Positions 5,354-25,062 of a DNA stretch of 28,133 nucleotides are shown here, in pieces. Made by a program: the position numbers and the translations under genes. The notes under the pieces were generated by a model. It worked only from the letters and a program-made list of their open reading frames with translations. It was not told the DNA's origin and ran no database searches. How positions within the stretch are numbered: position 1 is the stretch's first letter; the number at the start of each line of letters is the position of its first letter. The stretch comes from an uncultured Aquifex sp. (GTDB lineage Bacteria; Aquificota; Aquificia; Aquificales; QOAS01), in NCBI GenBank assembly GCA_964571355.1, contig CAZNBH010000001.1:1-28133 (forward strand). Reading direction: 5' to 3'.

Positions 5354-5665
5354 ATGAAATCCGTTAAGTCCCCTAACACTTTTAAAACCTCCTATATCGC
5401 CGCCGTTAAAGAGGAATTGGGCTTGCTTAAAAGAAAGCAAACCTCCAAAAGGAAAATAAAAGCCCCTCCCCACCTAAAGTGGGCTATAGTTGAAGCTTTA
5501 AAGAGAAAACCCAACGCGAGCTATAGGGAAATTCAAAGGTTGGCTTTTCAAATCTTTAAGGAAAGAAGCGAAAACCTTCCGTTTTTAGGTGCTTTGGGAA
5601 AAGTGGAACTTCACAAGTTAAAAGAAGTTTTGAATGATAAGGGGTTATCCTATTATGAGGATTAA
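5354..5665 (+). CDS. Putative antitoxin (VapB-position protein, family not recognised)
   Basis: 103 aa basic ORF directly upstream of and overlapping a PIN gene, with a helical HTH-like centre (AIVEALKRKPNASYREIQRLA). Confidence 0.65.
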   Translation: MKSVKSPNTFKTSYIAAVKEELGLLKRKQTSKRKIKAPPHLKWAIVEALKRKPNASYREIQRLAFQIFKERSENLPFLGALGKVELHKLKEVLNDKGLSYYED

Positions 5666-6143
5666 AGGAAAAACCATTTTTGTAGATACCTCCGCCTTTA
5701 TCCTATTTCTCCACAATAACTGCAACGAAATAACAAAGGAAATTTTTAAAAAAGCCTTAAATGGAAAATGTAAATTGGTAACCTCCTCCAGATGTTTGGA
5801 CGAGCTTATGTTCAAAGAAATGGTAATATTGGCAAAAACCAAATACAAAATGGGGAGTAAAACGGTAGAAAAATTGCGGAAAAATCCCGAATTGGTGAAG
5901 GAAATAGGAACCCTTTTGGAAAGGGTTATTCCACAATTCCTAAAAACGTACCGAATAGAGGTTTTGGATATTAAAAAGGAATGGGTTTTGGAGATACCAA
6001 AACTCATGAAGGAATACGGGCTTTTTGGAAACGATGCCCTAATCGTTAGGGCTATGATTTCAAAAAATTTGAAATATCTACTTTCGGCGGATAGCGATTT
6101 TGAAAAAATTCCTTTTATAGAGGTTATAAACCCCATCCCCTAA
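5655..6143 (+). CDS. vapC: PIN-domain toxin (VapC family)
   Basis: IFVDTSAFI, CLDEL, FGNDALI and LLSADSDF acidic PIN motifs. The likely start MRIKG at 5655 overlaps the partner stop; the track start is 5634. Confidence 0.85.
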   Translation: MRIKGKTIFVDTSAFILFLHNNCNEITKEIFKKALNGKCKLVTSSRCLDELMFKEMVILAKTKYKMGSKTVEKLRKNPELVKEIGTLLERVIPQFLKTYRIEVLDIKKEWVLEIPKLMKEYGLFGNDALIVRAMISKNLKYLLSADSDFEKIPFIEVINPIP

Positions 6144-6781
6144 GGGATTTTTCTCCATAAAATCCCCACGAAGGCACCTTCTCCGAAACCTTCCTTAAAG
6201 GGGTAGGTTTTATTTTCCGTTCCAAAAATGGTTTGACCTATTTCTACGACCTCAAGGGTGGTGTATTTTTCCGCCAAGTTGAGGATTTCTTCGGTGGAAA
6301 AGAACCTCGCGGGTTTGTAAAACCTGCTAAAAGGCTTTTTCCTCTCGTAGATTTTTCCCAAAAAACTTTCCCTATCGACGAACCCCATCAAAAAGAAACC
6401 GCCATCTATTAAAACCCTTTCGACCTCCTTAAGGCTTTGTATCGGGTCGTCTACGAAGCATATGGTTGTGACCATCAGGACAAAATCGAAACAATTACTT
6501 TTTAAGGGTAATGCCTCGGCTACGCCGAGGGTTACCTTTATCCCCCGCTTTCGGGCGATTTTTAACATCGATGGGGAGGGGTCCACGCCGAAGGGAACAT
6601 CGAGAGGAAGGGCAAAGCGACCGCTCCCCACCCCGACCTCCACCCCCTTGGAGGTATTTATCCCGTGTTTTTCCACCAAATGTTTTAGTAGGTTTATCTC
6701 CGACCTATAGAGGTATTTATTCCTTTCGAACCAATTTTCGTAGGCTTCGGTGTACAACTCAAAGGGTTCGATTTTTGGCAT
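6140..6781 (-). CDS. Class I SAM-dependent methyltransferase
   Basis: VEVGVGSGRF (motif I), GVDPSPSML, AEALPL, FDFVLM and ERVLIDGG. Confidence 0.9.
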   Translation of the reverse strand: MPKIEPFELYTEAYENWFERNKYLYRSEINLLKHLVEKHGINTSKGVEVGVGSGRFALPLDVPFGVDPSPSMLKIARKRGIKVTLGVAEALPLKSNCFDFVLMVTTICFVDDPIQSLKEVERVLIDGGFFLMGFVDRESFLGKIYERKKPFSRFYKPARFFSTEEILNLAEKYTTLEVVEIGQTIFGTENKTYPFKEGFGEGAFVGILWRKIP

Positions 6782-6798
6782 AGAACACCATTATGGGT

Positions 6799-7458
6799 TT
6801 AGGGTTTTGGCAAAACCATCCCAAAGCCGTCGATATTTTTCAATCCCAAACCGGTTTCGGAAATGAATTTCAACACCTCCCTCGGGGCGAAAACTTCAAA
6901 ATTCCCCGTAAGGGATTGTAGAGCCCTACCCTTAAAGTTTAGAGGTTTTACCCCGACCTCGAGAGGTTTTATTTCGAGCTTTTCCTCCAAGGGTTTCCCG
7001 TAATAGCTTTGGTACTTTTTGCGGATGTTTTCGACGAGAAACTCCGAAAGGTTCACACCTTCGGGAACCAATACGGGGGAAAGGGTTTTTAATTGAATAA
7101 CCTCGTCGGGAATTTTTACAAAAACCCTCTCCACCGAGAGGATATCGACATCGGTATCTCCCAACCGTAGGTTTTCCTCGAATATCAACCTATTCCTCAA
7201 AGGGGTAAGCTCGCAATCCCTTGGGGTGGCGAAGTAGACCCTAAAGTAGGGGTGGAAATAGAGAAAATTTCCCTCCCTTTTTAGGAACTTTCCAAAAATC
7301 CTCGAAAAGGTAAAGAAGTGGTAAACCTTCCCCTCCGAGGAGCGGGTGGCTATGCACTCCTCAAAAACCTCAAGGAGGAAATTCTTGAGGATACCGTTGT
7401 ACCTTCGGGGGATTTTTAGAGCTTCACCCCTTGCCCTAAAAAGGATTTTTAAAATCAA
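6799..7458 (-). CDS. cas6: Cas6-family RAMP protein, orphan
   Basis: C-terminal G-rich loop TGLGLKNIDGFGMV, FTFSR, KTLSPV and NIRKKY are typical of Cas6. TTG start with an AGGGGT SD-like site upstream. Confidence 0.8.
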   Translation of the reverse strand: MILKILFRARGEALKIPRRYNGILKNFLLEVFEECIATRSSEGKVYHFFTFSRIFGKFLKREGNFLYFHPYFRVYFATPRDCELTPLRNRLIFEENLRLGDTDVDILSVERVFVKIPDEVIQLKTLSPVLVPEGVNLSEFLVENIRKKYQSYYGKPLEEKLEIKPLEVGVKPLNFKGRALQSLTGNFEVFAPREVLKFISETGLGLKNIDGFGMVLPKP

Positions 7459-7469
7459 AGGAATAACCC

Positions 7470-7850
7470 CTAAAGGTTTAGTTTATCGGCGAATTCCTTG
7501 GCGGTATCTCCCCTTAAAACCTCCACCAAACCGGTAAGACCGTCCACCAAATATTTAGCGGGGATACCCTTGGACCTCAAAAAGGTCATCGCTATTATCG
7601 CCCTATCCTTGTGGGGGCAGGCGGTAACTATTAATTTGTCCTTCGGTAGGGTTTGATATTTTTGGGGTAACTCGTTGAGGGGTATATTAATCGAAGGTTG
7701 AACGTTCCAAGTTTTGTACTCCTCTTTAAACCTAATATCCACCAAAAGGGCTTTTCCCTCCTTTAGAGCCTCGACGAGTTGCTTCGCCGAGATTTTCATC
7801 TCCTTGCGGGTTTCGTAGTTGAAGTTTCTTAAAAAGGTTTCCAAATCCAT
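7470..7850 (-). CDS. Single-domain rhodanese/sulfurtransferase
   Basis: LLVDIRFKEEY, SINIPL and active-site loop CPHKDR. Confidence 0.85.
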   Translation of the reverse strand: MDLETFLRNFNYETRKEMKISAKQLVEALKEGKALLVDIRFKEEYKTWNVQPSINIPLNELPQKYQTLPKDKLIVTACPHKDRAIIAMTFLRSKGIPAKYLVDGLTGLVEVLRGDTAKEFADKLNL

Positions 7851-7853
7851 AGA

Positions 7854-7873
7854 GCCATCTATTGTAGGATGGC
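7854..7873. promoter_or_regulatory. Inverted repeat GCCATC-N8-GATGGC overlapping the rhodanese -10 box (candidate operator)
   Basis: The sequence gccatc tattgtag gatggc is read directly. Confidence 0.45.
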
Positions 7874-7888
7874 GAATTTGCCTATCAA
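7861..7888 (-). promoter_or_regulatory. Sigma70-type promoter TTGATA-16-TACAAT for the rhodanese-cas6-MTase genes
   Basis: The minus strand reads ttgata ggcaaattcgccatcc tacaat agatggctct ATG. Confidence 0.6.
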
Positions 7889-23799: not shown

Positions 23800-25062
23800 C
23801 TATACAAAGACCCCCTCCAGGGGTGCGGGTTCCAGTTTATCCCCTAAATAGGGATGTAGTTCGAGCAAATAATCCTTTCCGAGGTTATAACTTTGAGCCC
23901 CGAGAACCGCAAGGGTAATCCTTCCGCTTTTGATTTCCCCGAGGTGTTCTTTAATAAATTCCTCCACCTCTTGGGGGTTTACCCCTTCCCCACCAAAGGT
24001 GGTATCGGCGGGTATGAAATAGACCTTTTCGGGGTTTTCCAAATTACCGATTAACAGATTGCGGGACTTTACAAACTGCACCCTCACCTCGAGGGTGGCG
24101 GAAATCCGGTTTTCCCTTAGAAGGTTCTCGTATTTTTTCTCCACCAAAAAGGTCGGATTTGATAGACCTACCCCCTTTAGGGGATAGCCCTTTAGTTCCT
24201 CCACCAGTTCTATAACTACGTTTTGCCTGTTTAGGTAGAGCCTATTTTCCACCTTCCTTACAACGTCCCCCTTTGCGACCCCCCTAATCGGTGCAGAAAA
24301 GGGTTTTATCAACGAGGGGATAACCTTTTTAAGTTTCGGTATCTCTATCTTTCCCCTCAAAGGGAACCACCCCAAGAATTGGAATTCCTCCTCCTTGGTG
24401 GGTAGTTCCAAAAGTTCGGCAAACACCTTGAGGGTTCTAATAAAAATGTGTTCCTCCTTGGTTCCCGGTATTCTCCCGTAAAACCCCACGAGGTCCAAAA
24501 AGGAGTTTTCCCCCTTTTGTTGGAGTAGGGCAAACATACACCCGCAGTAGTCCTGCCTCCAAATTTCGAGCTCCTTTACGAGTTTGTTCATTTCCTGAAC
24601 GCCGCCCTTTTTGCGGTAATCCTTGAAGATGAATTCGACCCCGTAGAGGTTCTCCAGTTTCTTTCCCACCTTTTGGAGTTGCTCCTGACTCTTTTTCGGG
24701 GACATAAGGAGGGTTGTTGTAAAGGCGTCGCACCCGAGCTCCTTGGCGAGTTTTACCGAGCTCTCGAGGCGGTCGTCGAAGCACAAAACGCACCTAGCCC
24801 CCTTTTCCGGCTCGTTTTCGTAGCCCTTTACCCTTTTTAGCCACCCCTCAAGGTTATAATCCCCCTCTATAAATTCAATTCCCAGAAGGTGGCAAGCCCT
24901 CTCGCTCTCCTTCAAACGGAGTAAATATTCCTCATAGGGGTGTATATTGGGGTCGTAAAAGTAACCGATAATTTCGGCGTCTGGGTAATCTTCCCTAAGC
25001 CTTTTTAAAAAATAAATCGCGTCGACCGCGCAACAAATGTGGGCTAAAATCTTTTTGGGCAT
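23800..25062 (-). CDS. queH: Epoxyqueuosine reductase QueH with long C-terminal extension
   Basis: HICCAVD, YDPNIHPYEEY, RCVLCF, TTLLMSPKK and RQDYCGC within the first 180 aa, then about 240 extra aa. Confidence 0.85.
   Translation of the reverse strand: MPKKILAHICCAVDAIYFLKRLREDYPDAEIIGYFYDPNIHPYEEYLLRLKESERACHLLGIEFIEGDYNLEGWLKRVKGYENEPEKGARCVLCFDDRLESSVKLAKELGCDAFTTTLLMSPKKSQEQLQKVGKKLENLYGVEFIFKDYRKKGGVQEMNKLVKELEIWRQDYCGCMFALLQQKGENSFLDLVGFYGRIPGTKEEHIFIRTLKVFAELLELPTKEEEFQFLGWFPLRGKIEIPKLKKVIPSLIKPFSAPIRGVAKGDVVRKVENRLYLNRQNVVIELVEELKGYPLKGVGLSNPTFLVEKKYENLLRENRISATLEVRVQFVKSRNLLIGNLENPEKVYFIPADTTFGGEGVNPQEVEEFIKEHLGEIKSGRITLAVLGAQSYNLGKDYLLELHPYLGDKLEPAPLEGVFV

Follow-up and report, generated by a model that had tools for sequence, protein, structure and literature searches.

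A stand-alone Cas6-family protein lacking the canonical catalytic residues, encoded within an apparent rhodanese-methyltransferase operon of an uncultured Aquifex sp.

The stretch of DNA analysed in the present work (hereafter, the window; 28,133 nucleotides) corresponds to the entire longest contig of the source MAG (G000), which comprises 1.04 Mb in 221 contigs, is 85% complete and belongs to a bacterium of hot environments. A stand-alone gene of the cas6 family occupies positions 6799..7458 of the minus strand; it codes for 219 residues, starts with TTG and has a GGGG Shine-Dalgarno-like run 8 nt upstream. The N-terminus of this ORF (MILKILF) agrees with the MILKF start of its relatives in the family alignment. 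The gene is the middle one of a set of three, all located on the minus strand and next to flgG: a gene for a rhodanese-domain protein (7470..7850, minus strand; 126 residues) lies 11 nt upstream of cas6 and is the first of the apparent operon, and a gene for a SAM-dependent methyltransferase (Methyltransf_11; 6140..6781, minus strand; 213 residues) lies 17 nt downstream. Just upstream of the rhodanese start there is a promoter-like site, TTGATA-16-TACAAT (7861..7888, minus strand), recognised by its match to the consensus at 10 out of 12 positions. The three genes are probably co-transcribed. As for the methyltransferase, the closest models are those of small-molecule methylases, with scores far under their cut-offs.

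The trio is flanked on one side by flgG, a flgA-like gene, flgH and the nuo operon, and on the other by a PIN toxin pair and a cysteine synthase gene; the remaining genes of the 28-kb contig are housekeeping genes. The array scan did not retrieve any CRISPR-like repeat array from the 28-kb window, nor did any other cas gene appear among its ORFs, as an earlier reading of this DNA (hereafter, the sequence-only reading) had reported.

The same reading had assigned the 219-residue protein to the Cas6 family, and the assignment was confirmed by profile searches and by structure prediction. The protein passes the cut-offs of both TIGR01877 (cas_cas6, NCBIfam; 77.7 bits vs. 58.65) and PF01881 (Cas_Cas6_C, Pfam; 61.9 bits vs. 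23), and the PADLOC Cas6b model matches it over its full length (2e-30). The AlphaFold2 model, obtained with 86 aligned relatives as input, has a mean pLDDT of 94.8 and a pTM of 0.90 and contains two tandem ferredoxin/RRM domains. The structural comparison that had been proposed placed it close to active Cas6 enzymes, that is, Pyrococcus furiosus Cas6 (PfuCas6, 3i4h; Z 21.7, rmsd 3.1, 210 residues) and Methanocaldococcus jannaschii Cas6-1 (MjCas6-1, 5yi6; Z 20.9), and likewise to the non-catalytic PfuCas6nc (3ufc; Z 20.2) and PhCas6nc (3qjj; Z 20.0); the remaining Cas6 types, at a Z of about 12 or below, fall under this tier (Z 20-21.7). According to the profile matches, the model and the superpositions, therefore, the gene product is a genuine Cas6-fold protein of the Pfu/Mj type. 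Its pI (9.3) and net charge (+7) are close to the family medians (9.33 and +8). The protein is indeed short, as the sequence-only reading had remarked (the family median is 245 residues), because of a 6-residue deletion and a further 18-residue deletion.

For the analysis of the active site, 150 representatives were gathered from 1.8 billion proteins and 86 sequences were aligned; column counts set the four-member clade to which the query belongs (hereafter, the orphan clade) against the other 82 rows. The Tyr column, which holds Y in 74 of these 82 rows, is occupied in the query by Leu29 (codon ctt; 7372..7374, minus strand), at the position of PfuCas6 Tyr31. The His column belongs to the FLHDxGF loop and holds H in 79 out of 82 rows; there the query carries the 6-residue deletion, whose junction lies between Arg36 and Ser37 (7348..7353, minus strand) and by which the conserved LH(D)xG(F/Y) loop, together with the catalytic His, is gone. 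The Lys column is K/R in all the other rows (82/82) and corresponds to PfuCas6 Lys52; the query has His47 (codon cac; 7318..7320, minus strand) and the orthologue sharing 58% identity with it has Asn. Moreover, a helix 1 Gln conserved in the family is replaced by Lys25. The phmmer alignment to PfuCas6 (3pkm) gave a consistent picture, with Leu, Ser and His of the query, within the segments FLLEV, RSSEG and YHFFTFS, opposite Tyr31, His46 and Lys52, respectively. The PfuCas6-type catalytic Tyr/His/Lys set is thus absent from the query (Leu29, deleted, His47), so that the suspected loss of Tyr and His holds and the Lys has to be added to it. In PfuCas6, the Y31A and H46A mutants are inactive and the activity of K52A is 40-fold down (PMC3652601). 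Cas6 active sites are plastic, however (PMC3652601), and Lys25, Lys44 and His47 of the query are located near the active site, so that some residual activity may persist.

The 18-residue deletion is in frame and lies in the second RRM, after TLSPV (TLSPVLV), with its junction between Val131 and Pro132 (7063..7068, minus strand). It takes out the beta-hairpin between the first strand and the first helix of this domain, an element that is kept in the 58% orthologue. In other Cas6 enzymes the hairpin inserts into the RNA major groove, and it is variable between Cas6 families (PMC3902920). The G-rich loop, GLGLKNIDGFGMV (6814..6852, minus strand; residues 203-215), is kept; as had been recognised from the start, it is a clear one, since GLGLKNIDGFG (residues 203-213) fits GhGxxxxxGhG, with G203, G205 and G213 in invariant columns. 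Its inner residues are KNID instead of the KNSQ of the family, which means that one acidic residue has been gained. Along with the glycines of this loop, the query retains the hydrophobic core, the FTFS strand, SP128, N144, K148 and K176.

Exact-sequence look-ups revealed three metagenome contigs (L014, L015 and L016) on which the genes for the rhodanese, Cas6 and the methyltransferase follow one another beside flgG as in the MAG, so that four contigs in all show this order. The identity of their Cas6 to the query is 97, 89 and 58%, the last value being that of L015. The orphan Cas6 orthologues known are these four only; the search of the species-representative genomes with the query locus did not retrieve any relative. 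The 58% orthologue (L015, 9895-10597) carries a frameshift near residues 37-40, about 37 N-terminal residues being read in a different frame from the remainder, and the database gene call (198 residues) begins past it. Either this copy is a pseudogene or the assembly is wrong at this point; the frameshift suggests that at least one lineage can do without the gene.

Elsewhere in the genus the partners of the trio occur apart. In two genomes the methyltransferase gene directly abuts flgG, both the rhodanese gene and cas6 being absent; in two others, including G003, a rhodanese orthologue lies near glyA without cas6. Since both arrangements occur without cas6, the trio is a recent juxtaposition within one subclade. 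A linkage of rhodanese and cas6 beyond this subclade was sought and not found, the orthologue of G003 lying by glyA. In G005 (contig C3; L044) the rhodanese orthologue is in pieces, broken by stop codons (one TAG and one TAA).

In the maximum likelihood tree the four orphan sequences form one clade (support 100/100), which is sister to the type I-B Cas6 of the genus (support 96/89). Measured from their common node, the path to the query amounts to 1.20 substitutions per site and that to P0004, an array-linked Cas6 of the genus, to 0.26, corresponding to an approximately 4.6-fold faster evolution; the stem of the orphan clade is 0.77 vs. 0.19. The loss of the Tyr and of the His loop is common to the query and to the 58% orthologue and therefore predates their split; the deletion of the hairpin is confined to the branch of the MAG.

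The selection acting on the gene was estimated with the Nei-Gojobori method among three close sequences (those of the MAG, L014 and L016; dS 0.06-0.18), in all of which the frame is open. The dN/dS ratio is 0.27-0.29 (about 0.28), with 25 changes at 510 non-synonymous sites and 24 at 147 synonymous sites (Fisher p = 2e-5 against equality). Ratios of 0.01-0.16 were obtained for the neighbouring genes (0.04-0.10 for the rhodanese gene) and of 0.10-0.12 for the array-linked Cas6 paralogues of G003 and G004, the orphan value being about 2.5 times higher than the latter. Saturation of dS (above 2) led us to leave the ratios obtained with the 58% orthologue out of the evidence. The cas6 gene is also the fastest-evolving of the locus, with 58% identity vs. 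75-97% for its neighbours. Since its dN/dS exceeds that of the paralogues and is significantly below 1, the orphan gene is under a constraint that is relaxed with respect to active Cas6 and nevertheless real, which is not neutral drift.

We then consider the CRISPR-Cas content of the whole MAG. No array was detected by k-mer spacing in this 85%-complete assembly. Two repeat types exist in the genus, one of 29 nt (ending in ATTGAAAC) and one of 35 nt (beginning with GTCGCAATCCCGC), and neither has a copy in the MAG even when 6-8 mismatches are allowed. Probing for Cas1, Cas2, DevR-type Cas7 and the Cas10 palm did not retrieve any sequence from it, no RAMP scored above the cut-off, and the type I-B proteins of G003 and G004 gave no tblastn match. 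At the site where G003 and G004 harbor a stand-alone cas6 with an array, the two flanking genes of the MAG are 41 bp apart (contig C50) and nothing is inserted there. Of the seven other species of the genus, five possess Cas1 and type III RAMPs; the genus has two other genomes of small size, 93-95% complete, in which neither Cas1 nor RAMPs were found. Because the searches of the MAG were empty and these two genomes give the same result, the absence of CRISPR-Cas from this 85%-complete genome is plausible.

The gene at 6799-7458 would not, however, be the only cas6 of the genome, because the MAG also carries a second, canonical-looking one, which is of the PF10040 type and similar to Thermus Cas6A/B. 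The two pieces of this gene lie at contig ends, C86:3803-4361 (plus strand) and C174:2160-2014 (minus strand), some 21 residues being missing between them, and the His motif PDGVHGIFF is conserved. In the genome-wide inventory of arrays and cas loci advised by the sequence-only reading, arrays and cas effectors were not found in the 85%-complete MAG; the term "orphan" needs qualifying in view of the second Cas6. Orthologues of the PF10040 type are found in six of the seven sister-species genomes, mostly amid housekeeping genes. In one of these, G007, the gene adjoins an array of 14 repeats, GTCGCAATCCCGCTTTAGCGGGCTTTAGTTTCGAG (L038, contig C69, 10162-11171); Cas1 and RAMP were not found in G007, which may thus hold an array and a Cas6 without effectors.

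Some weaker candidates of the MAG were rejected. A weak RAMP match at the end of C174, considered as a type III subunit, proved to be the C-terminus of the second Cas6. The start of C37 is the equivalent of the start of the I-B array in G003 and G004, and its best match to the 29-nt repeat extends to 20 out of 29 bases; scores like this one recur across the whole MAG, and an array remnant at this place was discarded as chance or terminator-like similarity. The MAG is rich in short GC-stem hairpins with GAAG/TTCG loops (CCCC-GAAG-GGGG), a 12-mer of which, CCCCCGAAGGGG, is present in 81 copies; these hairpins, which are probably terminator-like, swell the background of weak CRISPR-repeat matches.

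The query can be compared with several known Cas6 proteins. With PfuCas6 (3i4h, 3pkm) and MjCas6-1 (5yi6) it shares the tandem-RRM fold over 206-210 residues, the C-terminal G-rich loop and the TIGR01877 sequence family; it differs from them in having Leu, a deletion and His at Tyr31, His46 and Lys52, in lacking the hairpin of the second RRM, in its length (219 residues against about 240-265) and in having neither an array nor cas genes nearby. PfuCas6nc and Pyrococcus horikoshii Cas6nc, which are classed as non-catalytic (PMC3652601, PMC3902920) and constitute a functional class rather than a curated family, resemble the query in combining a Cas6 fold with the lack of the catalytic His, and the structural similarity to them is as high as that to the active enzymes. 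Unlike them, the query has no hairpin, lies in a housekeeping operon and comes from a bin without detectable CRISPR-Cas, and its identity to them is only about 19-20%. Since the sister group of the orphan clade keeps the His and the identity to 3ufc and 3qjj is this low, we infer, from a tree built without Cas6nc sequences, an independent origin, the query having arisen separately out of the Aquificota I-B Cas6 clade.

The array-linked Cas6 proteins of the genus (P0004-P0006; L017-L020 in G003 and G004) make up the sister clade and share 42-46% identity with the query, as well as its N- and C-terminal motifs. They are found beside arrays with the repeat GTTGTTATGTCCCTAGAAGGGATTGAAAC or within a I-B cas operon and, in contrast to the query, have kept the Tyr, the His, the Lys and the hairpin. 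Lastly, the Cas6 of Sulfolobus solfataricus (Sso1437) also lacks the canonical His and Tyr and cleaves without them, via lysines of helix 1 (PMC3652601). This dimeric enzyme, of proven nuclease activity, differs from the query in that it retains the equivalent of Lys51 and makes use of Lys25 and Lys28 of helix 1; its structural match to the query is weaker (3zfv, Z 11.3).

On the whole, we infer that the 219-residue Cas6 has lost catalysis and retained RNA binding. The reading that we favour, and to which we would give an even chance of being right, likens the protein to the Cas6nc of Pyrococcus: a derivative of Cas6 that cleaves very slowly or not at all and has been maintained for binding RNA. 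The two-tandem-RRM protein would derive from the Cas6 that accompanies type I-B systems in this Aquificota genus; in the common ancestor of the small subclade, cas6 and the rhodanese gene would have come between the SAM methyltransferase gene and flgG. The canonical site would have been lost next (Tyr to Leu29, the His loop deleted, Lys to His47 or, in the 58% orthologue, Asn), and the branch of the MAG would additionally have lost the hairpin reading the RNA major groove. The fold, the basic charge and the G-rich RNA-binding loop have been kept, under a purifying selection that persists and with a probable co-transcription with the neighbours. A regulatory role by competition has been shown for Thermus Cas6 (PMC12102369); if arrays exist, a role of this type would be a version of the non-cleaving reading.

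Of the three options left by the sequence-only reading (a trans-acting crRNA processor, a non-catalytic RNA binder, or a protein repurposed outside CRISPR), the loss of the triad and of the hairpin and the 4.6-fold rate favour the non-catalytic end, and the 85% completeness of the MAG together with the plasticity of Cas6 sites keeps the trans-acting processor among the candidates. The latter would be an active crRNA endonuclease with a remodelled site (e.g., Lys25, Lys44 and His47), working on unassembled or unbinned arrays, and we consider it rather unlikely. Arrays and cas loci are often missing from bins, and the present one is scattered over 221 contigs; the five sister species with Cas1 and type III RAMPs, the second Cas6, which hints that crRNA biology may persist, the purifying selection on the gene and the ability of His-less Cas6 enzymes to cut (PMC3652601) all speak in its favour. 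Such an enzyme would nevertheless have to cope with three triad positions altered at once, with the RNA-groove hairpin deleted and with an acidic residue gained in the G-loop, while evolving 4.6-fold faster than its sister clade, and it would do so in a MAG where neither an array, nor either repeat type of the genus (with 6-8 mismatches allowed), nor Cas1, Cas2, Cas7, Cas10 or RAMP, nor matches (tblastn) to the sister-species I-B proteins were found, the two small genomes of 93-95% completeness being equally devoid of Cas1 and RAMPs.

The opposite view, outside the three options just mentioned, is that cas6 may be decaying slowly, because the 58% orthologue is frameshifted. In its strict form, in which the gene has no function left after the loss of a CRISPR-Cas system, is read through only as an operon member and is turning into a pseudogene, we deem it unlikely: the missing catalytic residues, the two internal deletions, the frameshift on L015, the highest rate of the locus (58% vs. 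75-97% identity), a constraint weaker than that of the active paralogues and a MAG in which CRISPR-Cas was not found speak for it, yet it accounts poorly for a dN/dS of 0.28 significantly below 1 (p = 2e-5), for a frame open in three lineages about 0.18 apart in dS, for the fact that both deletions are in frame, for the high-confidence fold model and for the maintenance of the structural core, the G-loop, N144, K148 and K176. The retained selection, the tight operon-like spacing and the gene order common to four contigs could also be read as a takeover outside CRISPR, with Cas6 binding RNA as a partner of the two flanking gene products, the rhodanese (sulfur transfer) and the SAM methyltransferase. 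This is improbable in our opinion, given that the methyltransferase gene stands by flgG without cas6 or rhodanese in two genomes of the genus and the rhodanese orthologue by glyA without cas6 in two others, that the closest models to the methyltransferase are small-molecule methylases, matched far below their cut-offs, and that a candidate target RNA was not found. It is equally a long shot that a Cas6-derived RNA binder was domesticated in CRISPR-poor Aquificota as a fixed subunit of the rhodanese-Cas6-methyltransferase operon, guiding or chaperoning RNA outside immunity; if true, the gene would count among repeated exaptations of orphan Cas6 proteins into housekeeping operons.

Non-cutting relatives of Cas6 are already known, and the present gene is only moderately unusual in this respect. 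To our knowledge, the role of the Pyrococcus Cas6 proteins that bind and do not cut has never been settled. The non-cleaving derivative favoured here would add a second example, of independent derivation and with a history that can be dated: its catalytic sister clade is found in the same genus, the loss is stepwise (the active site, then the groove hairpin), the residual selection is measurable, and the lineage is one in which effector genes and arrays were not found. If its ligand is a defined RNA, the protein would reveal for what purpose the Cas6 scaffold is retained after immunity ends; if it is merely decaying, it would provide a clean case of the erosion of a cas gene after the loss of the system. 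Either way, caution is advisable with the annotation "endoribonuclease Cas6" for such genes.

Lastly, other features of the window deserve mention. A protein of 420 residues (23800-25062, minus strand) has a QueH (epoxyqueuosine reductase) domain that covers residues 5-179 only, and its C-terminal 240 residues have no Pfam match. At 5354-6143 (plus strand), a 103-residue gene overlaps the PIN-domain gene (169 residues) in a toxin-antitoxin-like pair. The pair is found in the MAG and on L014; its absence from the corresponding position of L015, a more distant contig, makes a recent insertion probable.
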